64,000 nucleotides of DNA from assembly GCA_963800555.1 (NCBI GenBank), contig CAWDBH010000010.1, positions 104,603 through 168,602 of the forward strand, read 5' to 3'. Origin of the DNA: an uncultured Candidatus Micrarchaeota archaeon (lineage in GTDB: Archaea > Micrarchaeota > Micrarchaeia > Anstonellales > Bilamarchaeaceae). The notes beneath the pieces were generated by a model that saw only the letters and a list, made by a program, of their open reading frames with translations, was not told where the DNA came from and did not search any database. This document shows, piece after piece, positions 7,340 to 63,839 of this stretch. The translations under genes were made by a program, and so were the position numbers. Position 1 is the first letter of the stretch. Every line of letters begins with the position of its first letter.

Positions 7340-7567
7340 ATGGGTGAAATATTCAAATCGACTATCCGGCCGCTGGGTTCTTCGGCGTGCGTTCTCATAC
7401 CGAAGGAGCAGTTAGTGGAACGGGGCCTGAAAATCGGGGATAAAGTGGAGATCGCTCTGCTGGTGCATCGGACGCCCGCCGACTTCGATAAACTGCTCGG
7501 AATAGCGAAAGGCGCTGGTCCATTCGTCCGTGATAAAAAAACCCGGCGATTCGATGATCCTGCTTGA
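7340..7567 (+). CDS. vapB: AbrB/SpoVT-type antitoxin (VapB-like)
   Basis: Small protein with the looped-hinge-helix pattern SACVLIPKEQLVERGLKIGDKVEI, directly upstream of a PIN gene. Confidence 0.75.
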   Translation: MGEIFKSTIRPLGSSACVLIPKEQLVERGLKIGDKVEIALLVHRTPADFDKLLGIAKGAGPFVRDKKTRRFDDPA

Positions 7568-7931
7568 CACCTCGGCTTGGATAGAGATATTCAGGGATAC
7601 CGACAAGGGCCGGAAAGCTCTGGAAACACTCAAATCAGAAGATGGAGCCTATGCATGCGTGATCAGCATCGCCGAAATCTCTTCATGGGCTGATAAGAAC
7701 AGGTTCGACCCCAGTATGCTGCTCCAGGAGCTCGGCAAAACAGCTGATTACGTAGATCTCGACCGCGGGATTCTCCAGCAATCCGGGCTCGATTATAATA
7801 AGCTAAGGAAGACAAAGGAGAAAATAAGCCTGATCGACGCGATTATCTATACGACGGCAGCCATCCACGGGCTGAAACTGCTCACATGCGACAGGGATTT
7901 TGAAGGGTTACCTGATGTTATATTGATTTGA
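7554..7931 (+). CDS. vapC: PIN-domain ribonuclease toxin VapC
   Basis: MILLDTSAWIE N-terminus and C-terminal LLTCDRDF. Start ATG at 7554 overlaps the antitoxin gene. Confidence 0.85.
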   Translation: MILLDTSAWIEIFRDTDKGRKALETLKSEDGAYACVISIAEISSWADKNRFDPSMLLQELGKTADYVDLDRGILQQSGLDYNKLRKTKEKISLIDAIIYTTAAIHGLKLLTCDRDFEGLPDVILI

Positions 7932-8783: not shown

Positions 8784-8817
8784 TGGAAAAGGATTAAAAA
8801 CATGAATTTCTAAAAGA

Positions 8818-9537
8818 ATGATTGAAAAGATAAAAGAGATTGAGAATATGGCTTGGGGGATTAAACAACACAACATATTCGAACCGAGTACTTTCTTCCA
8901 TCATCCATTTATGTCAGAGGAGCATATAAAAGAAAAATATCAAAAAACCCCAGCATTACCAGAATGGGAATCTGTAGCACCGATAAATTATCTTCAAGTT
9001 TCATATCTAACCGAAATTGAGAGTTTATATAATTCAACTCGTTTGCTCTATGCCCTGTCACCCGAAGTTATTCCATTTTTTCATTTTCAGGTTTTATCAG
9101 CATCGAGAACTATTCTAGAGTTATTAATCAGATTTCAACAAAATATCAGAGATGATGTGAAACTTGATCCAATCGGGCCTCGATTTGATGAAGTTACTTG
9201 GGATCCTAAAATTCGAGAACAAGCTAGAACATTATATGGGGAATTATCATTAGCAACACATGGAAGACATAATGATGTTTATAATAAATCATTATCCTAC
9301 CGGTTATGTCAAAATGATTTAACAGTTGTCGAAAAGAAACATCTTTCTACGTTAATTGAAAATCTTGGAGAAGATCAGGGTAAGCGAGTGTTCTCTGCAT
9401 ATAATGGCCCTATTTTAGATAAATTTTGTTTTGAGGTAATTGGTAAGATCAATATAATCATAATCGAGGTTATGAAAGAAAATCATTATGATAGTAAACC
9501 AAATTTAATTGAACCCCAACATAGTAAACCCAAATAA
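8818..9537 (+). CDS. Hypothetical protein (239 aa) in an AT-rich island
   Basis: ORF only; composition is visibly more AT-rich than the flanks. Confidence 0.55.
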   Translation: MIEKIKEIENMAWGIKQHNIFEPSTFFHHPFMSEEHIKEKYQKTPALPEWESVAPINYLQVSYLTEIESLYNSTRLLYALSPEVIPFFHFQVLSASRTILELLIRFQQNIRDDVKLDPIGPRFDEVTWDPKIREQARTLYGELSLATHGRHNDVYNKSLSYRLCQNDLTVVEKKHLSTLIENLGEDQGKRVFSAYNGPILDKFCFEVIGKINIIIIEVMKENHYDSKPNLIEPQHSKPK

Positions 9538-9718
9538 GCCTAATTTCCCCGTTTTCCATTCTTTTGGCCAGTATTGCCCGTGTAAGCCCTATTACATGGT
9601 CAGGTATCTTCCGGTCAATATCGATACAGTGAACCATATGGTTGAAATGGCTCAAAATACTTAGTATACGGTTTACTGATATGGTTTAGAATAAGAAAAA
9701 TGGTTTACCAAATAACGG

Positions 9719-10012
9719 TTATTCAAACCATTTATCACAGACTGGTCTGACAAACACAATTTGCTCAGTCACGATCAGACTGAATCTTCCAAGACTGATC
9801 GCGAACTCAACTGATTCGCTAGATTGGCCAGCTGGGATGAAGATGGTCCAGGATTTGCCATCGTGCTGCTCTACTAATAATGAACCGATTAATCTCTTCA
9901 TCTGCTCAGATGTCGGGTGAATTGAATTTAGATTATGTCCGGACAGTGCGCACACCTGTTTTCCTAATCCAGTTTCCCGTCGTTGCTGTAAAAGCTCCCT
10001 CATGCATACCAC
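9719..10012 (-). CDS. Hypothetical protein (97 aa), AT-rich island
   Basis: ORF only. Confidence 0.4.
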   Translation of the reverse strand: MVCMRELLQQRRETGLGKQVCALSGHNLNSIHPTSEQMKRLIGSLLVEQHDGKSWTIFIPAGQSSESVEFAISLGRFSLIVTEQIVFVRPVCDKWFE

Positions 10013-10153
10013 GCTGTACTATTATGTGATGGCAGGTATAAAAATATTTCACCAAAAAGCAGCGTTTAGGCCTACCTTCAGGTAAGAAACATATCTGAAA
10101 AATGAATTTAACGTCGATAGATTTATATGGAATGGAATGAAACTAAAACAGTA

Positions 10154-10166
10154 TTGGAAATTCTAA
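10154..10166. promoter_or_regulatory. Degenerate copy (TTGGAAATTCTAA) of the palindromic site TTAGAAATTCTAA
   Basis: Differs at one position from the two exact copies at 10678 and 10736. Lies between the 118-aa and 97-aa genes. Confidence 0.35.
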
Positions 10167-10200
10167 CATATACTCATCTAGTAATTTCCGGGCCTGGAAA

Positions 10201-10557
10201 TCACTCATGCAAATCCGAAGTGATCACATTAATCCCCCCGAATTCTTTCTTTTGTGAATCATCGCTATGTGCAGCTTGATATTTCTTTTCTGCACAGATG
10301 AAATCCACACTAGTAAGCCAGACACCTAGCTTCCTATCTTCCAGAGCCTTCTTTGCCTGCTGCTCACAGTCTGCCTTGAACTGATTGAATTCTTTCCTTT
10401 GCACTTCACTAATCAGTCTTTGAGGTGGAGGGAAATTGAATTTTATAACTCCCATAGCCCAAACGAATGCGAATCCTGTGATTGCTGTTTTTAAAAGTGG
10501 GTGTTTGATCTCTCTTGGAGCCTTGAACCTAGGATTCCGAACAGCCACATATTGCAT
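10201..10557 (-). CDS. Hypothetical protein (118 aa), one hydrophobic segment
   Basis: ORF only. Confidence 0.45.
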   Translation of the reverse strand: MQYVAVRNPRFKAPREIKHPLLKTAITGFAFVWAMGVIKFNFPPPQRLISEVQRKEFNQFKADCEQQAKKALEDRKLGVWLTSVDFICAEKKYQAAHSDDSQKKEFGGINVITSDLHE

Positions 10558-10677
10558 GATTAATTTGCGCTTCCATGATATTTAAATCTTCTCTTTATGT
10601 CGTCATCAACCACATAATTATCTTACCTACACAGTAAGCAGATCTATTAGTTCAAAATGATTGAATATAAGATATTA

Positions 10678-10748
10678 TTAGAAATTCTAAATCTATCTTA
10701 TTATGTATGCTCTGACCCATTATTCGAATTAAATATTAGAAATTCTAA
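10678..10748. promoter_or_regulatory. Two ~30-bp direct repeats, each containing the palindrome TTAGAA-A-TTCTAA (10678-10690 and 10736-10748)
   Basis: Read directly: ATTAGAAATTCTAAATCTATCTTATTATG and ATTAGAAATTCTAAGATTATCTATTATG. An inverted repeat overlaps them: TCTGACCCATTAT at 10711-10723 and ATTATGGGTCAGA at 10757-10769. Confidence 0.45.
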
Positions 10749-10779
10749 GATTATCTATTATGGGTCAGATCTAATCTGG

Positions 10780-12246
10780 TCATTCTTCCAGATTTACGAT
10801 GCTCTCCTTCTCATTATCCTTTGCTGTGTATAAAATGTAATCGAACGGTAGGCCGAGACCCACGTCTGGAAGGCTATCATGGTAACCAGAATTCCCGACG
10901 TGCAGGTGCTGGTGCGGTAATATCGCAAGCGAGTCGCTGACGCTATCGGGCATCTTCACGCGCGTACAGAATTCGCGAAGAGCAACTCTGATAACTCCTA
11001 ACGTGTTTTCAGCAGTATTTGTTTTCTGAGAATTGGTAACCTCTTCGTAAACTCTATTCACTACGTATGCGCGCGCCTTTCTCCACTTCTCCACCGTCAA
11101 TTGACTTTGCTTGGGGAGCGAGCGCACTATCTCTTCTGGTGCCGGTCTTCCTTCCATGGCATTCCTGACGATAGCGCAACCAAGGCTTAGAAGAAAGAGT
11201 GCTGAGTTGACAAGTGACGGTTTCCCCGTATCCTTTAGCGCCTTTGGCGTAAATATCTGCCAGGCCGGGATTTCTGGGAAATAGCATTTTGCGCAATCGA
11301 TGACCGAGGATTGGGTGCCATTCGAGAGTATTGAGATCAAAATGCCGCGTTCTATAGCAGCATCAACGATTCCCTTCTGCTCTGCGGTGAAGTACCAGGC
11401 TTCCGGCCTGCTCCCGGAAATCCTTTTCTGGACCTCCCGTCCCATGGCAATCAAACGTTTCGTGCCGAGTTTGATGTCATTATTACCGAGCTTCCTAATC
11501 ACGAGACCGACATGATCAGGATCCCCAACTATCAAATGTACGATGGTATAGTTGTTTGCCATGACCCAGCGCGGAGCCGGGTGTTGAAATATATCCGGCA
11601 TGCTTTCGAGAAGAGAATCAGCTCTCCGGTAATAAACTGTTGAAAGCGATGCTACTTGTTCCGCAGCATTCTCCCCAAAACAGCTATTCAGTATATCGAC
11701 AGTACTCGAGAATCCGTAATCTATCAGCACACTCTTGAAAGCCGAATACACCACGTCGTTTAACCCACCTCTGGGGAGCAAGAGAGTGGAATGCAGGTCG
11801 AAGCTAACGCTCCGGTATCGTAAGTCTTTAAGACGATCTATGACTTCTGATGCGCAGGAGTCCTCAGTTACATCGTGTTCATGGAGCGGCGGTTGCTCGA
11901 CCCTTTCAATATCTCCGTCACTTGATTGGTAATATGTTACCCCGAAAGCCAAGGGGTTCTGCCTGACCTCATTCTCGGTCTTCGGATCAGGGTTTTTAAG
12001 GATGCGGAATATCGAGATTGGCTGTATTTTGTCGATCAGCGGCTCAACAGCCCGCTCTAGTTCTGCTTCGCTGTCCCTGACCGCGACCACGCGCTCTCCT
12101 TTGATACCGATCCACTTGTTCGGGTACATCCCCCCGATATCTTCCATATGTCGTCTGGCCCAGTCATAGCTGCGCTTGGCCTCTCCGGCCTGGTCAACGT
12201 TAATAATCCGGCTTATCTGCTTACGTTTTTCGTGCAAATATATCAC
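10780..12246 (-). CDS. Two-part protein: N-terminal DUF5678-like domain plus HAD-like fold with non-canonical catalytic residues
   Basis: N-terminus YPNKWIGIKGERVVAVRDSEAELERAVE. HAD-like motifs appear in order: FDLHSTLL (DxH instead of DxD), ILSNGTQ, TGKPS, VGNSGYHD (GN instead of GD). Confidence 0.6.
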   Translation of the reverse strand: MIYLHEKRKQISRIINVDQAGEAKRSYDWARRHMEDIGGMYPNKWIGIKGERVVAVRDSEAELERAVEPLIDKIQPISIFRILKNPDPKTENEVRQNPLAFGVTYYQSSDGDIERVEQPPLHEHDVTEDSCASEVIDRLKDLRYRSVSFDLHSTLLLPRGGLNDVVYSAFKSVLIDYGFSSTVDILNSCFGENAAEQVASLSTVYYRRADSLLESMPDIFQHPAPRWVMANNYTIVHLIVGDPDHVGLVIRKLGNNDIKLGTKRLIAMGREVQKRISGSRPEAWYFTAEQKGIVDAAIERGILISILSNGTQSSVIDCAKCYFPEIPAWQIFTPKALKDTGKPSLVNSALFLLSLGCAIVRNAMEGRPAPEEIVRSLPKQSQLTVEKWRKARAYVVNRVYEEVTNSQKTNTAENTLGVIRVALREFCTRVKMPDSVSDSLAILPHQHLHVGNSGYHDSLPDVGLGLPFDYILYTAKDNEKESIVNLEE

Positions 12247-12285
12247 TCGTTATATTATGTGTAAATCATGATGCGATGCAACGAA

Positions 12286-13011
12286 TCATTGCCTTTCAAG
12301 CCGTGCAAGCATCACTTCTGCGGTTATCATCCTGATGTCGTGCTTCATCCCCCGATTATGATCTTCACCGAAATCCGATGAAATTAGTTGTAATGAGAAC
12401 CTCGCCATAGGCAGGTCTATCCCGGATATCCCTAATAAGTAAAGCGCATCAAGGACCTTTTTTAGTTCTAATACACTAGGATAAGTATGATTTTTTTTAT
12501 AGATATAGCCTTCCAGCGTATAATCAGGGAGAAGCGGGTTTCCAGCCGAAGGACCGATTGAAATACGTGCATTCTCAATTAGATAACTCACACGGGATCG
12601 GGCATTTTTGATTACTTTCGCATGTTCTGCTGAAATATCGGAAATAACTCCAGTATCCTGATTAAATTCGGCAAGCATCAACCTGGCAGCGAGGGCCCTT
12701 CTTTTAGGGACCGTTTTCCCAGAGGAAATAAGACAAAGAGCCTGTTTAATGACGTCACGGTGAGCTTCTTGGTCTGCCGCTTCCAGAAGATATATCTTGG
12801 GGAGCGAATATTCCAAACGATTGCCGAGCCTAGAGTCAGACAAATGGCGTTCTGTACGTTTCACCAATCTAGCCAGATTCTCAGCGCAAATTGTTATGCT
12901 CTCGCTGACATCCCGAGTAGCAAGAATCTCAGCCAAGGGCCTTGCTTTGATTGTGACGACCTTGTAAGTCCTCCTATCATAGTATGTTTGGGGCATCATT
13001 TGTTTCACCAT
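12286..13011 (-). CDS. Hypothetical protein (241 aa), middle gene of a three-gene operon
   Basis: ORF abuts the upstream gene with no gap (13012/13011). Confidence 0.55.
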   Translation of the reverse strand: MVKQMMPQTYYDRRTYKVVTIKARPLAEILATRDVSESITICAENLARLVKRTERHLSDSRLGNRLEYSLPKIYLLEAADQEAHRDVIKQALCLISSGKTVPKRRALAARLMLAEFNQDTGVISDISAEHAKVIKNARSRVSYLIENARISIGPSAGNPLLPDYTLEGYIYKKNHTYPSVLELKKVLDALYLLGISGIDLPMARFSLQLISSDFGEDHNRGMKHDIRMITAEVMLARLERQ

Positions 13012-13527
13012 TCACAAGCAGAATTTCTCAATCCCTGGATCAAGTTGGCCGCTTTCCACAAGCTCTTCGTAAGATACCTCGGTTACGCTCACTCTTTTAG
13101 GTATTCTCATGAGGGCCGGGGGGATTATCAGGGTACCATCGATCGAGGATACGAACTCACGAATCGATGAAAACGCCTGCCCGCAATTTCGAGCGACCGC
13201 TTCGATGATGCTGTTGAAAACCACCAGGAACTTGTTTCCAGGGTCCTTCTGCATCCTGCCGGCGATCGAGAATCCATGCTCCGATATGCATCGCCCTTCA
13301 AGGTCGATTTTCCTCACGATGCCAGTTGTCGTCACATGGCATCCTTTCCCTGAAACCGCGCACGGGAATTTGAATTCGGTCCTGCGACCGACCTCATCCG
13401 TTGATTTGAAAGACAATTCCAGTTCTCCAGCCTGGACGTGATCCGTCAGAGGTTTTTGAAGATGCAGTCTCCAGTTTATTGGTATTGCGCGGTATTGCGG
13501 ATTGGGAACGCATCTACTTTTATGCAT
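13012..13527 (-). CDS. Hypothetical protein (171 aa), first gene of a three-gene operon
   Basis: ORF preceded on the minus strand by TATA-like TTTATATT/TTATATA within about 35 nt. Confidence 0.55.
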   Translation of the reverse strand: MHKSRCVPNPQYRAIPINWRLHLQKPLTDHVQAGELELSFKSTDEVGRRTEFKFPCAVSGKGCHVTTTGIVRKIDLEGRCISEHGFSIAGRMQKDPGNKFLVVFNSIIEAVARNCGQAFSSIREFVSSIDGTLIIPPALMRIPKRVSVTEVSYEELVESGQLDPGIEKFCL

Positions 13528-13566
13528 ATGAAAATAGGTGTATATAAGAGAATATAAATGTATTAG

Positions 13567-13959
13567 TCATTTCTTTCGTGAGAGGAACTTCTTAATCTCC
13601 TCATCGACTATTGCCTCGGCTTTCTTCCCCCCCTCTATCTCGTCGTATCTCTTCAAGACCGCACGGAAGACCGCGAGCTTGTCGGGTAGTTCTTTGACCC
13701 GCTCATCGGACATTATGAGTTCATTCAGAGGCGGCGGGGGAGTGGATAATAAGACTGGTTCGGGGAAATCCACGGGAGGTTGTGGCTCATCTGGCGGGGG
13801 TTTCTGTTTTTTTGTTTCCGGTTCGATTTTCTCGGGCAACCTTTCTGATCTTTTAGCTGGTTCTTCAGCTTTCTTGGCTGGCTCTTCTTTTTTCGCCGCA
13901 GCTCCGCTCTTCTTCTTCGCAACAGCCTCTTTCAATTTGGACAATCCGCTACCTGCCAT
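13567..13959 (-). CDS. Lys/Glu/Pro-rich low-complexity protein with a short helical C-terminal domain
   Basis: KKKSGAAAKKEEPAKKAEEPAK...PPPDEPQPP, followed by ELPDKLAVFRAVLKRYDEIE. Confidence 0.5.
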   Translation of the reverse strand: MAGSGLSKLKEAVAKKKSGAAAKKEEPAKKAEEPAKRSERLPEKIEPETKKQKPPPDEPQPPVDFPEPVLLSTPPPPLNELIMSDERVKELPDKLAVFRAVLKRYDEIEGGKKAEAIVDEEIKKFLSRKK

Positions 13960-13971
13960 CGTTTCACCGGA

Positions 13972-14256
13972 TTACTTTCTCTTTTTTTCCGCGGGTTTCT
14001 TCTTCGTAACGCGCTTTTTCGCGCGGGTTTTTGGTGCTTTCATGATAGGCTCTGAACGTGCGGAGGCCAGCCTCTGTTTCAAAACGTCGGAGTGGAACTT
14101 GGAATCGAGTTCCGTGGCGACTTTCTCATAGTCGTCTGCCTTCACCTGTATGGTGCGGTCATTCCCGCACCTGGTGCAGATGAACCTGCCTTCGACAGTG
14201 TCTATGGAACGGGGCATCTTCCCACAACCAGAGCATATCTCGATTGCGTCATCCAT
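13972..14256 (-). CDS. Zinc-ribbon protein with a highly basic tail
   Basis: CSGCG...CTRCG ribbon and the C-terminal tail KTRAKKRVTKKKPAEKKRK. Confidence 0.55.
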   Translation of the reverse strand: MDDAIEICSGCGKMPRSIDTVEGRFICTRCGNDRTIQVKADDYEKVATELDSKFHSDVLKQRLASARSEPIMKAPKTRAKKRVTKKKPAEKKRK

Positions 14257-14298
14257 GAACGGCTATTCGGCTAGATAAATATAAAAGGATTCGGTTCC

Positions 14299-16266
14299 TC
14301 AGCGGACGCCCAGGAATTCTCTGTTCAGCAGCCATGGACCCGGAATGCCGATTTCCCCATGCAGGAGATTACCCTCAGGGGTCACGTATGTGCCCTTATA
14401 TGTGTTGGGCGAAGAGCTGCCCGTTGGTCCGGTGAATAGCTGTGACTCGAATGTGGGGGCTTTGTTGTACTGACCGAAAAGGCGGAGCATCGGATCGAAC
14501 TGGTTAGCAGGTCCGCTCCACATATCCCCCCAGCTGAGCAGATTCGTCTTTCCAGGTACATACGCTATGTCCACGACATGCATGCCCCCTCGGGTATTCG
14601 CAGTGGCCACAACAGTATGAATGCCATTCGCACGGTAGAAATCACCGACGAAATCAGCGGCGCCTGCGCACAATGTGACCCCTGGCTGTGGATATGGTGT
14701 ATTATGCGTGCTGTACCAAGTGGCAGCGCCCTGCAGGTATGCGAGTAGCTGATTGTTATCCACGGACGCGACCTTAATGACCGAGGGATCCAGGAAGTTT
14801 CCGGCCATGAGGGCGCTTTGCGCCCCTTGAGCGTATGCGACCTGTTGCATGAAAGCGAGCAGGAATCTGCCGGCGTTTATCACATCGTCGGTGGAAGCGC
14901 CTTTGTACTTGGCTGTGAAATCATCGAAGCTCTTCGCTCCGAGCAGCCTGCTCTTTGCGTTATTGTCCACGGTATCCCAATTTGCATCTCCGGATCGTCC
15001 GAATCCGTAAGGACCTGGATTCTGCGTCGTGGGGATATCAGTGGTCGCCTGCGGGACCCCTCCCGGACCCATACGCTCATATTGGGAGCTTATCACCGTG
15101 TTCATACGCGGTCCAGCGATGACCAGGTTAAGTCCAGCAATGATCATGACGTCATTGCCCGGATTTATGTCCGGGTTCCAGTGGGTGATGCCTCCTCTTA
15201 CAAATACGTCTCCGGTCGCCCAGTCGCCGAAATTCATGGTTCTCGAAATACTGCCGCCGTACATGGATTTTATCACACCGTAGTTTGCGAATGGCCCTAT
15301 GGAATAATTAGAGAACCTGAATTGAGCTCCCATAGAAACGCTCTCGAGCTGTGGAGCATAATATCCGATGTATGCTGTCCTTATCGGAGTGCTCGCAGCG
15401 AAATAGAAGTTAGGCGCCCCATAAACCAGAATCCTCTTGTTGTATTCAAGGGACGCGCCGCCTGCGATGTTGAGATAACTGTCGTCTCCCAACGGATAAG
15501 AGAATGCTCCGATTCCGAAGGCTCCCAACCTCAGTCGCCATTTATTGTCCGCGCCGAATGGTTGCGAATATCCCACACCTATCGCGTGCGAGGTGTAAAG
15601 ATAAGAAGGCAGATATCCTACCGCGCTGACACGACCGTAATACATGCCCGTAAAATGCCCCAGGTCCAGGCTCTCTTTCACGGACATGGTAGCGAATGGG
15701 GCCGATAGTGCTCCGAACCAGATATTCCCTCCATCGAACCTGAGCATGTTGTTACGGCTGAAATTATAAGCCATGAAAGCCGAAACGGCAGAACCCGCTT
15801 CGTTCGATAGGATGCCTCCGCCTCCGCTGACTTTATGATTGAGACTTATAGGCCGCTCATTTCCGTTCATATCGACTTTTTCAATGCCGCCAAGAGCCGG
15901 ATCACGGTAATCCGGTTTTGGAGGCGTACTCGAGATTGGAACGTCGGATGGCTTTTCGGTGTCAAATCTCATCTCTATCGTGCCTACGTCGACATCTACG
16001 GTAGAATTCCTTGGAGCCGCTTCTGTGGGAGAGGCTGGTTCTTCTGCTTTGGGGGACTCCTCAGCTGCTATTGGGACAGGCATCTGAGCCTCTTGCGCAT
16101 ACGCTCTCCTTTCACATAATGGGGTCGATATCATGATTGCCGCGGCGGCCACTGCGGCACTCAATCCGAATGCTCCTAGACGAGTGTTTGCTTTTTCTGC
16201 CGTCTCGGTTTGCTTCCTTGTCTCGCTTCCGTGCTTCGTAAATCGTAATTGCATTATATCTACCAC
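14299..16266 (-). CDS. Signal-anchored secreted protein: Pro/Glu linker, beta-strand-rich aromatic/Gly region, C-terminal transglutaminase-like Cys-His-Asp domain
   Basis: N-terminal hydrophobic segment LGAFGLSAAVAAAAIMI. Alternating patterns in the middle, for example WRLRLGAFGIGAFSY and SVSMGAQFRFSNY. C-terminus GVTLCAGAADFVGDFYRANGIH...GGMHVVD...WGD. Confidence 0.65.
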   Translation of the reverse strand: MVDIMQLRFTKHGSETRKQTETAEKANTRLGAFGLSAAVAAAAIMISTPLCERRAYAQEAQMPVPIAAEESPKAEEPASPTEAAPRNSTVDVDVGTIEMRFDTEKPSDVPISSTPPKPDYRDPALGGIEKVDMNGNERPISLNHKVSGGGGILSNEAGSAVSAFMAYNFSRNNMLRFDGGNIWFGALSAPFATMSVKESLDLGHFTGMYYGRVSAVGYLPSYLYTSHAIGVGYSQPFGADNKWRLRLGAFGIGAFSYPLGDDSYLNIAGGASLEYNKRILVYGAPNFYFAASTPIRTAYIGYYAPQLESVSMGAQFRFSNYSIGPFANYGVIKSMYGGSISRTMNFGDWATGDVFVRGGITHWNPDINPGNDVMIIAGLNLVIAGPRMNTVISSQYERMGPGGVPQATTDIPTTQNPGPYGFGRSGDANWDTVDNNAKSRLLGAKSFDDFTAKYKGASTDDVINAGRFLLAFMQQVAYAQGAQSALMAGNFLDPSVIKVASVDNNQLLAYLQGAATWYSTHNTPYPQPGVTLCAGAADFVGDFYRANGIHTVVATANTRGGMHVVDIAYVPGKTNLLSWGDMWSGPANQFDPMLRLFGQYNKAPTFESQLFTGPTGSSSPNTYKGTYVTPEGNLLHGEIGIPGPWLLNREFLGVR

Positions 16267-16322
16267 TAGTATATTGTAATAGAAGGTTATTTAAGGTTAC
16301 AGTTTAAGTATTAAAATGAGAT

Positions 16323-16469
16323 TTATTCCTTGGCCGCACCGGATTCCACCATATGCTTGAACATCGCTACCGGAACCATCACCGACACATTGGCGCCGCA
16401 TGCGGTGCACAGGAAGTCATCCTTGTGCTCTTTGGATATCTTCCCGCAATTGGCGCATATCTCGACCAT
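16323..16469 (-). CDS. Small zinc-ribbon protein (48 aa)
   Basis: My translation: MVEICANCGKISKEHKDDFLCTACGANVSVMVPVAMFKHMVESGAAKE. Sits 18 nt downstream of the aminotransferase gene; below the track cutoff. Confidence 0.45.
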   Translation of the reverse strand: MVEICANCGKISKEHKDDFLCTACGANVSVMVPVAMFKHMVESGAAKE

Positions 16470-16487
16470 GTTCTTCAGGGGTTCCAC

Positions 16488-17774
16488 CTACGAATGATGC
16501 TTTCCGCAATGCACGAATTCGCATATAGCTCCGTGGTGCGTGAAGCCTTGTGATGATACCGATTTCAATGACCTCTCCAATATACCGAGCGCTATGTCAG
16601 CTTCCTCCTCTTCGATCACATACGGTGGGACCAATCGGATACCCTTCTGTCCGCAGCCGAGCACCAGGAGTCCCCTTCTTGCGCATTCTGCGATGAGGTT
16701 GTCCCGCATCTTTGGATTCTTGACCTCGAATGCGAGCATGAGGCCTAAGCCCCTCTGGTTGAGCATGCCATCTATGCTGCGCAGCTTGTTGAGAATGTAA
16801 TGCCCCATCCGTTCATTCTTGCTAAGGAGTTTCCGCTTCTTTATTATCTCGATGGTTTTCATTCCTAAAGCGAGATCCAAGGAATGCCCGCCGCCCCATG
16901 TGGTGGATATGGCTCCATGCTCACCCGGGAACATCTTGTTGTTCGCTATGACCGCGCCTACCTGGAGCGCTTTGGCAGCTGAGAAGACGTCAGGCTTGAT
17001 ACCATAGTGCTCGAACGCCCACCATCGTCCGGTGCGCCCCATGCCGCTTTGCACCTCATCCGCGATATACGGTATCCCATGCGCTTTGGTGGTTTTGCGG
17101 AGCTCGTGCACCAGGTTCTTCGGTGCGATGTTGTATCCCCCTTCCCCTTGGACATGCTCGATGATTACGAACCCGATCTCTTCCGGCGACGCCTCGGTGC
17201 GTATTATCTTCTCGAGGCGCTCTCCGGCGCTTTCATCGAACGGGAGACGTATCACGGGGATGCGCATGTAGCCTCTCTTATGAACGTAATTCGTGTTCGT
17301 GAGCGAAAGCGCACCAAGCGTCCTTCCATGCCACCCTCTTTCCATCGAGATACCGATCTTGGTGCCCGGGCGCTTGCGCATGCAGATCTTTATCGCGTTC
17401 TCCACGGCTTCCGCGCCTGAATTTATCAAGAACGCGGAGTCGAAACCGCTGGGCGAAACGCTAGTGAGCGTCTCTATCATTCGCAGGTGCTCTTCGATCG
17501 CGAAATCCTGCCCTGCGAATTTTATCGGGAACCTGTTGGAATATTCTTTGATGACCTCGAGCATCTCAGGATGATTGTATCCTAAGGGGTTCGATGCTAT
17601 CTGACTGGCCATGTCAAGGAAGACGTTGCCATCTACATCTTCGCAATATGGTCCATAACCTTTCCCCGAGAAGACGAGCGGATAAGAAATTGACCAGCCG
17701 CCGTTTTTTGCCCTGAGGCCTTTCAGGATGCTCAATGATTTCGGGCCTGGAACTGAGGTCCTTATCCTTATCAT
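16488..17774 (-). CDS. Class III PLP-dependent aminotransferase (acetylornithine/4-aminobutyrate aminotransferase family)
   Basis: Family-typical GSGAEAVE, DEVQSGMGRTG and the SAAKAL lysine region. Confidence 0.9.
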   Translation of the reverse strand: MIRIRTSVPGPKSLSILKGLRAKNGGWSISYPLVFSGKGYGPYCEDVDGNVFLDMASQIASNPLGYNHPEMLEVIKEYSNRFPIKFAGQDFAIEEHLRMIETLTSVSPSGFDSAFLINSGAEAVENAIKICMRKRPGTKIGISMERGWHGRTLGALSLTNTNYVHKRGYMRIPVIRLPFDESAGERLEKIIRTEASPEEIGFVIIEHVQGEGGYNIAPKNLVHELRKTTKAHGIPYIADEVQSGMGRTGRWWAFEHYGIKPDVFSAAKALQVGAVIANNKMFPGEHGAISTTWGGGHSLDLALGMKTIEIIKKRKLLSKNERMGHYILNKLRSIDGMLNQRGLGLMLAFEVKNPKMRDNLIAECARRGLLVLGCGQKGIRLVPPYVIEEEEADIALGILERSLKSVSSQGFTHHGAICEFVHCGKHHS

Positions 17775-37861: not shown

Positions 37862-39353
<1,492 letters not shown>

Positions 39354-63712: not shown

Positions 63713-63839
63713 GGGCCTGTAGCTCAGTTTCTTTTTGCTATTTTTTGCCTTATAGGGCAAAAACGCAAAATATAGAGCAACTTGGTAGAGCGTCGGACTT
63801 TTAATCCGCAGGCCGAGGGTTCAAATCCCTCCAGGCCCG
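63713..63839 (+). tRNA. tRNA-Lys(UUU) with a ~54-nt intron in the D-loop
   Basis: GGGCCTG-TA-GCTC-AG-[54]-TTGGTA-GAGC-G-TCGGA-CTTTTAA-TCCGC-AGGCC-GAGGG-TTCAAAT-CCCTC-CAGGCCC-G. Confidence 0.85.

Follow-up and report, generated by a model that had tools for sequence, protein, structure and literature searches.

Three genes, here called A, B and C, follow one another on the minus strand of the window, the 64,000-nt stretch of archaeal DNA that was analysed (Table 1). The original prediction had singled them out as a set of minus-strand genes encoding 171, 241 and 488 aa, separated by 0 and 39 nt, with TATA-like elements 5' of the first gene. The ORFs are confirmed, the start codon of gene B abutting the stop codon of gene A, and two TATA-like elements can be seen in the AT-rich spacer that precedes gene A. 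The three genes do not form an isolated block; they make up the tail of a co-directional array of nine genes that extends from position 17774 down to position 10201. Comparison with a related genome (L004, see below) indicates that the true start of gene C is probably a TTG codon at position 12237, which would give a product of 485 aa. The window also holds an archaeal 16S rRNA gene. A scan for bacterial sigma-70 promoters and terminators was set aside as not applicable to an archaeon.

Table 1. Coordinates of the genes, protein domains, motifs and intergenic elements at the A-B-C locus (window numbering).
Feature	Position	Strand	Basis or remark
Gene A (171 aa, ATG start)	13012..13527	minus	ORF list
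Gene B (241 aa, ATG start)	12286..13011	minus	ORF list
Gene C (488 aa, GTG start)	10780..12246	minus	ORF list
AT-rich spacer upstream of gene A, two TATA-like elements	13528..13566	minus	Sequence CTAATACATTTATATTCTCTTATATACACCTATTTTCAT, 39 nt
Spacer 5' of gene C, with the element TTACACATAATATAAC	12247..12285	minus	Sequence
DUF5678-like domain of gene C, about residues 13-85	11992..12210	minus	Profile and structure matches
HAD-fold domain of gene C, about residues 128-478	10813..11865	minus	AlphaFold2 model and Foldseek
Motif I, DLHST	11785..11799	minus	D150 putative nucleophile; H152 at the Asp+2 acid/base position
Motif II (S308-N309) through motif III (K342-P343)	11218..11325	minus	Translation
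Motif IV, HVGNSGYHD	10876..10902	minus	Translation
Two tandem hairpins directly 3' of the gene C stop codon	10667..10769	minus	Inverted repeats I5 and I14

The region on the 3' side of gene C has an unusual composition. GC content is 0.37-0.39 across positions 9001-11000, as against about 0.51 elsewhere, and the palindrome TTAGAAATTCTAA is present in three copies, all confined to this flank, where 0.09 would be expected by chance. Each of the two tandem hairpins that follow the gene C stop codon carries the palindrome TTAGAA(A/T)TTCTAA at its tip (RNA fold z -3.04). The hairpin palindrome is conserved in the related genomes L004, L006 and L007, and the hairpins may act as a terminator or as an operator. 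The AT-rich, palindromic surroundings had been taken as a setting typical of accessory or defence cargo. Both features are indeed present, but the palindromes go with a different gene: they sit in the intergenic regions around a downstream 118-aa gene and are retained in relatives that have no gene C. A PIN toxin gene at positions 7530-7931 is also near the locus, and HicB/PIN modules lie nearby in relatives.

Genes A and B have very few relatives. Neither matched any entry in Pfam, NCBIfam, PADLOC or PHROGs, in scans that also took in six neighbouring genes, nor did PDB sequence searches give a match. Each has a single relative among 5.8 billion protein clusters, and the two come from one contig: the sole relative of gene A, 78-81% identical, is in L006/L007, and the single relative of gene B (P0008, 44% identical) comes directly after it. 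Scanning JGI metagenomes with gene A brought up nothing beyond this already known contig. The dN/dS ratio is 0.18-0.21 for gene A and 0.39 for gene B, whose dN is 0.52; with 44% amino acid identity, against 73-96% for the neighbouring genes, gene B is fast evolving. By these sequence measures A and B are both genuine coding genes subject to purifying selection; they form a lineage-restricted orphan pair sharing a conserved TATA-like promoter region. The spacer upstream of gene A is nearly identical in L007 and is likely to be the promoter of the pair. The A-B pair adds to the stock of lineage-specific genes in DPANN archaea.

Sampling of the locus is thin, with only three related genomes spanning it. 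L004 shows synteny to either side (window positions 13567-15923 correspond to 9923-7562 in L004, and 9548-12265 to 12626-9973). It carries gene C at the syntenic spot and has 49 nt where the window has 1301 nt holding genes A and B. In L006 and L007, the gene order 130-A-B is followed by a CM_2 (chorismate-mutase-like) gene and there is no gene C. Gene C occurs without the A-B pair in L004, L001-L003, L008, L009 and L011. Its homologues lie between the genes for SHMT and ThiI, beside TYW3 or after an aminotransferase gene, and most of them are found among housekeeping genes, such as those for SHMT, ThiI, FtsZ and ribosomal proteins. An all-against-all BLASTP comparison of neighbouring genes revealed no conserved partner; nor is any neighbour shared by the distant relatives of gene C, which lie on short contigs or among many unknown genes. 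Judged from these neighbourhoods, gene C is a stand-alone gene whose genomic context changes from one related genome to another. The TTACACATAATATAAC element upstream of gene C is kept 5' of the homologue in L004, where A and B are absent, as it is in the window, where they are present. Its conservation with or without the A-B pair before gene C suggests that gene C is driven by a promoter of its own, separate from that of A and B.

These comparisons bear directly on the reading put forward in the original prediction, in which the trio was a candidate for an undescribed multi-gene, defence-type system, to be abandoned should the three genes fail to be conserved as a unit. Among the relatives compared, A, B and C were found as neighbours in no other genome, and that reading is not supported. 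A genuine genome-specific module, serving for example in defence or in some accessory function, with A and B acting alongside the HAD-like enzyme, could still be imagined, since the shared strand and the spacers of 0 and 39 nt would allow co-transcription by read-through. It would also accord with the variability of the locus between close relatives, with the nearby AT-rich segment and PIN toxin gene and the HicB/PIN modules of relatives, and with the fast evolution of gene B. Against these points, each part of the trio occurs without the other, gene C keeps its upstream element in L004 and most of its homologues sit in housekeeping surroundings. PADLOC-DB gave no match for A, B or C at E-values up to 1, PHROGs gave none, and no relative of any of the three turned up when phage and plasmid records were searched with tblastn or when IMG/VR was scanned. 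A genome-specific module is therefore quite improbable. It is likely, instead, that the locus is a small variable spot in the chromosome of a Micrarchaeota-type (DPANN) archaeon, at which two independent units, the A-B pair and gene C (a rare HAD-type gene for which a mechanism is proposed below), have become adjacent by chance. The apparent three-gene system would then be a juxtaposition at a variable locus, and a false lead is removed.

Gene C belongs to a small family. Five close homologues are 51-62% identical to it, and a profile search of 1.84 billion representative proteins added about ten distant ones. The subfamily numbers about 16 known members among billions of proteins, in Micrarchaeota and in at least one bacterial metagenome-assembled genome. 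The dN/dS ratio relative to L004, 0.17, is that of a gene under purifying selection. From profile searches and the predicted structure, the gene C product is a DUF5678-like domain fused to an atypical HAD-fold domain, the latter representing, on the sequence comparisons, a very rare subfamily that lies outside every curated model. Searches of PDB sequences with the gene C profile and with the distant relative P0017 returned no meaningful match. Matches of the profile to TAL effectors (E 1e-17) were rejected as homology: many repeats align with the 'ILSNG...TP' segment at about 10 bits apiece (per-stretch E above 1), and the overall value is an artefact of adding up these scores.

A resemblance of the start of the gene C product to DUF5678 had been pointed out previously and is borne out by profile retrieval and by structural matches, although the direct score against PF18929 stays below the Pfam gathering cut-off of 23.2 (17.6 bits, E 0.0035, residues 40-73), as does that of the homologue P0013 (21.7 bits). 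The gene C family profile retrieves genuine DUF5678 proteins, including P0018 (109.8 bits to PF18929), P0022, P0027 and others, and the two families find each other reciprocally in profile searches. In a structure search, the N-terminal domain of the gene C model matched Pandoravirus proteins annotated as 'DUF5678 domain-containing' with probabilities of 0.97-0.98. The usual partners of DUF5678 were sought in plasmid records, which gave no match, and in a literature search, which produced no relevant paper. We infer that the domain serves in partner binding or oligomerisation.

The HAD assignment draws mainly on structure. An AlphaFold2 model built from an alignment of 16 sequences (pLDDT 81.6, pTM 0.68) was used, an earlier model from six sequences (pLDDT 52.5) having been discarded. 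The model has a five-stranded Rossmann-like core, whose strands (146-149, 303-307, approximately 331-332, 447-451 and 469-473) lead up to the motifs; strand ends fall at D150, S308, K342 and N452, the arrangement known from HAD enzymes. All of the best 50 Foldseek matches in the PDB are HAD enzymes. HDHD3 (3k1z) comes first; two CESH[L] and several L-2-haloacid dehalogenases rank high, and the list includes many phosphoglycolate phosphatases and beta-phosphoglucomutases. E-values are modest, the best being 6.6e-4, and TM-scores on the target stay low, at 0.37-0.56, owing to two large insertions. One is the cap, previously noted as oversized at about 150 aa. It is all-helical and occupies about 120-150 aa of the 153 residues that separate motifs I and II. 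The other, also helical and about 85 aa long, lies between motifs III and IV and had been missed. Sequence models give fainter signals. Gene C itself has no HAD match in Pfam; P0017 scores 24.7 bits against PF00702, under the cut-off of 26.4, and another distant relative, P0026, likewise has a sub-threshold match to this model. Across the family there are weak matches to PF00702, TIGR01428, TIGR02253 and TIGR01691, those to NCBIfam models all being below cut-off and that to TIGR01428 reaching E 0.15 only, in two of the 16 members. Models for enolase-phosphatase, CTE7 and BT2127-type diphosphatase were also matched weakly.

The motifs were examined in the 16-sequence alignment, which includes relatives down to 21% identity. 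DLHxT, SN, KP and HxGNSxxHD occur in the canonical HAD order and are invariant in all 16 sequences. Translation, alignment and model together uphold the earlier description of HAD motifs in that order, with a His at Asp+2 and a motif IV reading GNSGYHD. In motif I, D150, L151, H152 and T154 are invariant (16/16), and the sequence departs from the canonical DxDx(T/V) at Asp+2. A non-acidic residue at this position is known in dehalogenases, phosphonatase and P-type ATPases. S308, N309, T333, P334, K342 and P343 are invariant in the segment from motif II to motif III, which provides the expected Ser/Thr and Lys/Arg. Motif IV has N452 in place of the first acidic residue and H456 in place of the second, leaving D457 as the sole acidic residue retained; H449, G451, N452, S453, H456 and D457 are all invariant (16/16). 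In the cap, R226 is nearly invariant. Taken with the non-acidic Asp+2, SN and KP, it gives a pattern compatible with that of L-2-haloacid dehalogenases and CESH[L] (HAD type II), whose Mg-independent chemistry has an Asp nucleophile that attacks carbon, an Arg in the cap domain and a water activator in motif IV.

We propose that gene C uses the standard HAD covalent mechanism, in which D150 would attack the substrate while S308, N309 and K342 hold its anionic group. The aspartyl-ester intermediate would be resolved by a water molecule activated by a histidine (H152 or H456, polarised by D457). Having neither the acid/base at Asp+2 nor the main Asp that ligates Mg2+, the enzyme would most likely work without Mg2+. 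As with L-2-haloacid dehalogenases and cis-epoxysuccinate hydrolases, the site of attack would probably be a carbon centre or an ester. Read from the motif substitutions alone, then, gene C probably encodes a Mg-independent covalent-Asp hydrolase.

It could be argued that gene C is an ordinary Mg2+-dependent HAD phosphatase of subfamily IA, with His152 as the acid/base and Asn452 and Asp457 holding the metal. A His is capable of general acid/base catalysis, and a metal could still be bound by Asn and D457; the nucleophile Asp, the Thr of motif I, the Ser of motif II, the Lys of motif III and one Asp of motif IV are all invariant. HDHD3, which heads the structural matches, is a member of the phosphatase group, many phosphoglycolate phosphatases and beta-phosphoglucomutases appear in the list, and the enolase-phosphatase, CTE7 and BT2127-type diphosphatase models are weakly matched. 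None of the phosphatase models reaches its cut-off, though, and Asp+2 and the first Asp of motif IV are replaced in 16 of 16 sequences. In accounts of the superfamily (Burroughs et al. 2006; Allen and Dunaway-Mariano 2004), the characterised HAD enzymes known to be without the metal-binding Asp are the non-phosphotransferases. On balance, a phosphatase is unlikely, while still a serious contender. Substitution of three of the usual acidic catalytic residues, and the extreme rarity of the family (about ten relatives of the C domain among the 1.84 billion representative proteins), might alternatively be signs that the HAD-like domain is a catalytically dead binding module. Such a pseudoenzyme is very improbable: the nucleophile Asp, the core motif residues and the substituting His and Asn residues stay invariant down to 21% identity, which is the pattern of an active site, and dN/dS is 0.17.

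A bolder idea, which we regard as rather unlikely, is that the DLHxT/HxGNSxxHD clade constitutes a new catalytic class of HAD proteins, in which H152, H449 and H456, with D150 and D457, would make up a His acid/base system or a transition-metal site, a chemistry undescribed for this fold, and the DUF5678 domain would have a regulatory or partner-binding role. If this were true, DUF5678 would gain its first functional anchor. The strict conservation of the substitutions makes this subfamily a clean, testable case of re-tooling of the HAD scaffold on loss of the Mg2+ and acid/base aspartates.

The N-terminal region of gene C shares with DUF5678 (PF18929) the pattern W...YPxKW(I/V)A(I/V)xxxxVVAVxD. 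DUF5678 proteins are mostly stand-alone, of 80-100 aa, or made of tandem repeats, whereas gene C joins the domain to an enzyme, the first such context for this uncharacterised domain. The HAD domain has the fold and cap type of HAD-IA phosphatases (HDHD3, HDHD4/NANP, phosphoglycolate phosphatase, beta-phosphoglucomutase), along with their hhhhSNG motif II and KPxxxxF motif III; where those phosphatases bind Mg2+ and carry out acid/base catalysis through the acidic residues of DxDxT and GDxxxD, gene C has DLHxT and GNSxxHD. With L-2-haloacid dehalogenases and CESH[L] it has in common the five-stranded Rossmann-like core, the helical cap after motif I, the Asp nucleophile that ends strand 1, a non-acidic residue at Asp+2, the Ser-Asn of motif II, the Lys-Pro of motif III and an Asn/Ser-rich motif IV with one Asp. 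It differs from them in the nature of the Asp+2 residue (His in gene C, Tyr or Gln in these enzymes), in the two invariant His residues of its HxGNSxxHD motif IV, in a cap about twice the usual size, and in carrying both the extra stretch of about 85 aa that separates motif III from motif IV and the N-terminal DUF5678-like domain. CESH[L], a HAD-fold hydrolase without Asp+2, combines an Asp nucleophile with a His-based activator of the hydrolytic water (PMC10869282), and the motif pattern of gene C is compatible with such an arrangement.

Genes A, B and C, three adjacent minus-strand ORFs, have the lengths and tight spacing (0 nt between A and B and 39 nt between B and C, from the ORF coordinates) on which the original prediction of a three-gene operon was built, and the TATA-like elements noted ahead of the first gene are also present, two of them within the 39-nt spacer upstream of A. 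All three belong to a longer co-directional array, which starts with genes for a class-III aminotransferase, a 54-aa zinc ribbon, a 655-aa protein, a 94-aa zinc ribbon and a 130-aa protein, continues with A, B and C, and ends with a gene for a 118-aa protein. The four genes between the aminotransferase and A (window 13567-16487, minus strand) have no family matches and are kept in all three related genomes; the 655-aa protein has an N-terminal hydrophobic segment, the 94-aa zinc ribbon a Lys-rich tail, and the 130-aa protein is rich in Lys, Glu and Pro. Judged from codon-level comparisons with relatives, A, B and C are all protein-coding and under purifying selection (dN/dS 0.18-0.21 for A, 0.39 for B, with dN = 0.52, and 0.17 for C; 0.05-0.27 in neighbouring genes, given as the same range as that of A, B and C). 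Gene B evolves by far the fastest, with 44% amino acid identity versus 73-96% in its neighbours. Comparison of the window with a related contig, L004, suggests that gene C probably starts at a TTG codon at 12237.

Features of the window (window positions)
Feature	Position	Strand	Remark
PIN-domain gene	7530-7931	plus	PF01850, E 7e-16; between ABC-2 transporter and ABM/glyoxalase genes
Orphan ORF, 239 aa	8818-9537	plus	AT-rich segment
Orphan ORF, 97 aa	9719-10012	minus	AT-rich segment
Palindrome, copy 1	10154-10166		TTAGAA(A/T)TTCTAA
118-aa protein gene	10201-10557		last in co-directional array
Palindrome, copy 2	10678-10690		TTAGAA(A/T)TTCTAA
Palindrome, copy 3	10736-10748		TTAGAA(A/T)TTCTAA
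Gene C, 488 aa	10780-12246	minus	ORF
Gene B, 241 aa	12286-13011	minus	ORF
Gene A, 171 aa	13012-13527	minus	ORF
Class-III aminotransferase gene	16488-17774		first in co-directional array
16S rRNA gene, archaeal	37862-39353	minus
tRNA	63776-63831	plus	Rfam

The proposal that the three genes form an undescribed multi-gene system is refuted by their distribution, as the trio is not conserved as a unit in any other genome. Close homologues of gene C number only five in a set of 5.8 billion protein clusters, where A and B each have a single relative, both on the same contig; JGI metagenomes yielded no relative of A except on that known contig. Syntenic contigs, deposited as Candidatus Micrarchaeota MAGs, are 74-94% identical to the window at the nucleotide level; with the archaeal 16S rRNA gene of the window, they point to a DPANN archaeon of this group as the most likely source. 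On L004, where synteny with the window extends to both sides, the order is aminotransferase, 70, 640, 96, 126, C, 118 (numbers being protein lengths), and A and B are missing. DNA alignment (window 13567-15923 with L004 9923-7562; window 9548-12265 with L004 12626-9973) places its breakpoints around 1301 nt carrying A and B in the window versus 49 nt in L004. The converse arrangement is found in contigs L006 and L007, where upstream synteny runs through the 130-aa gene, A and B to a chorismate-mutase-like CM_2 gene in place of C (L006 6091-6420 versus window 10318-12265), and the 118-aa gene is mostly deleted (window-equivalent 10318-10629), leaving a 3' remnant. Elsewhere gene C lies between SHMT and ThiI, with FtsZ, Spt5 and ribosomal protein genes nearby (L001-L003 and the contigs of homologue P0004), adjoins TYW3 (L008) or follows an aminotransferase gene (L009), with no A-B recorded beside it. 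When the genes around all C homologues were compared with one another by BLASTP, all against all, no gene other than the syntenic ones recurred as a partner, and these contexts offered no conserved neighbour hinting at a pathway. Since the window and L004 share a conserved sequence (TTACACATAATATAAC...) immediately ahead of C, with a different preceding gene in each, and the window and L007 likewise share the spacer ahead of A, A-B and C each appear to carry their own promoter. By these comparisons, A, B and C are not a unit.

Accessory or defence-type cargo had also been suggested from the surroundings. The AT-rich island beside the genes is real (GC 0.37-0.39 across 9001-11000 versus about 0.51 elsewhere in the window), its segment at 8800-10700 bearing two orphan ORFs. 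From the glyoxalase gene to the 118-aa gene the content differs in every relative (orphan AT-rich ORFs in the window, HicB/PIN in L004, Lactamase_B/PIN/DJ-1 in L006), and this, together with the nearby PIN-domain gene, identifies the neighbourhood by its gene content as plastic, a variable spot. Such plasticity does not link A, B and C to one another. The defence-type reading itself found no backing: PADLOC and PHROGs gave no matches for A, B or C, and phage records, plasmid records and IMG/VR contigs held no relatives of them. The palindromic repeats exist as described, a 13-nt palindrome (TTAGAAATTCTAA) having three copies in the 64-kb window, all in this micro-region, where 0.09 would be expected by chance. 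Two copies are the tips of tandem hairpins directly past the gene C stop codon (z -3.0), and the third lies past that of the 118-aa gene. Their tie to the trio did not hold, since the palindrome occupies equivalent positions in L004 and also in L006/L007, where C is absent; by position it is a feature of the intergenic sequence on either side of the 118-aa gene, a possible terminator or operator there.

Elsewhere in the 64-kb window the 16S rRNA gene is present and no match to 23S rRNA was found, so that the rRNA genes appear to be unlinked. ARAGORN found no tRNA, unlike Rfam, which reported one.

Genes A and B, already unrecognised in the original prediction, gave no family, structure or literature match. 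Only two lineages have them, side by side and following the 130-aa gene in each, with A well conserved and B fast-diverging; this distribution allows no description beyond that of a lineage-specific accessory pair.

Gene C proved more informative. Its DUF5678-like start, sub-threshold in a direct Pfam match (17.6 bits versus 23.2), is borne out by a profile of six close homologues, which, searched against 1.84 billion representatives, recovers small, clear DUF5678 members (P0018, 109.8 bits; P0022, 66 bits; P0027, 40 bits) sharing with it the pattern W...YPxKW(I/V)A(I/V)...VVAVxD. The N-terminal part of the structural model likewise matches proteins of Pandoravirus annotated as "DUF5678 domain-containing" (prob 0.97-0.98). 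A literature search on DUF5678 found no relevant paper.

For the remainder of the protein, the profile search returned about ten distant relatives (21-43% identity), some without the DUF5678 domain. One (L012 9845-11530; 32% identity) has a DUF5678-like N-terminus and DLHGT / HVGNSKYHD motifs, with RelA/SpoT, ParB and ParA genes nearby, and its GC-rich contig comes from a MAG that carries the label Gammaproteobacteria; from this homologue the subfamily would extend beyond archaea, unless the contig is mis-binned. Another, P0012 (34% identity), lies with nine other genes on L014 (1-9129); these nine have no Pfam matches and a sole, marginal PHROGs match, and L014 may derive from a mobile element or from a highly divergent genome.

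An AlphaFold2 model of gene C from 16 sequences (pLDDT 81.6, pTM 0.68; C-domain mostly >90), used instead of one from 6 sequences (pLDDT 52.5), shows a predicted HAD fold with the motifs in canonical order, strands ending exactly at D150, S308 and N452 and close to K342. All 50 top Foldseek matches in the PDB are HAD-superfamily C1-cap enzymes; they include HDHD3 (E 6.6e-4), two cis-epoxysuccinate hydrolases and many L-2-haloacid dehalogenases, phosphoglycolate phosphatases and beta-phosphoglucomutases. Sequence models back HAD weakly (homologue P0017, 24.7 bits versus the PF00702 cut-off of 26.4; scattered NCBIfam HAD matches, all sub-threshold). The oversized cap noted originally, helical in the model, measures 153 residues from T154 to S308 between motifs I and II, and a further helical insertion, about 85 aa long, lies between motifs III and IV. 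TAL-effector homology was rejected as an artefact of summing over repeats: segment LISILSNGTQSSVIDCAKCYFPEIPAWQIFTP (gene C residues about 303-336; window 11239-11340) gives a weak alignment to every 34-aa repeat VAIASNGGGKQALETVQRLLPVLCQAHGLTP, reaching E about 1e-17 only when summed over repeats (single repeat E > 1).

Invariant in the 16-sequence alignment are D150, L151, H152, T154, W284, S308, N309, T333, P334, K342, P343, W388, H449, G451, N452, S453, H456 and D457. Kept throughout are the nucleophile Asp, the Thr of motif I, the Ser(-Asn) of motif II, the Lys of motif III and a single Asp in motif IV. The alignment confirms as family-wide swaps the His at Asp+2 (the second motif I position after the nucleophile) and a motif IV of the form GNSxxHD (GNSGYHD in gene C), with Asn and His standing in for the two usual motif-IV aspartates. 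Gene C belongs to a very rare HAD variant that lies outside all curated models and is marked by invariant DLHxT and HxGNSxxHD motifs, a pair of large insertions and a DUF5678 fusion that some members have.

In the HAD superfamily (Burroughs et al. 2006; Allen and Dunaway-Mariano 2004), Asp+2 is the general acid/base of the phosphotransferases and the first motif-IV Asp a main Mg2+ ligand; known members without these residues attack carbon, not phosphorus, and work without Mg2+. We tentatively lean towards a non-phosphoryl chemistry for gene C, at an ester or carbon centre. An unusual phosphatase, the activity of some of its structural matches, seems only slightly less likely, and the remaining probability falls to something else or to an inactive protein. 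The gene C enzyme is predicted to form a covalent aspartyl intermediate on D150, is probably Mg-independent and would use one invariant histidine, H152 or H456, with D457, as acid/base. Structures of CESH[L], a cis-epoxysuccinate hydrolase of the HAD superfamily, represent an enzyme of the carbon-attacking kind, in which the nucleophile is Asp, Gln takes the Asp+2 position, motif II has Thr-Asn, motif III has Lys, and a His-Glu dyad activates the hydrolytic water (PMC10869282).
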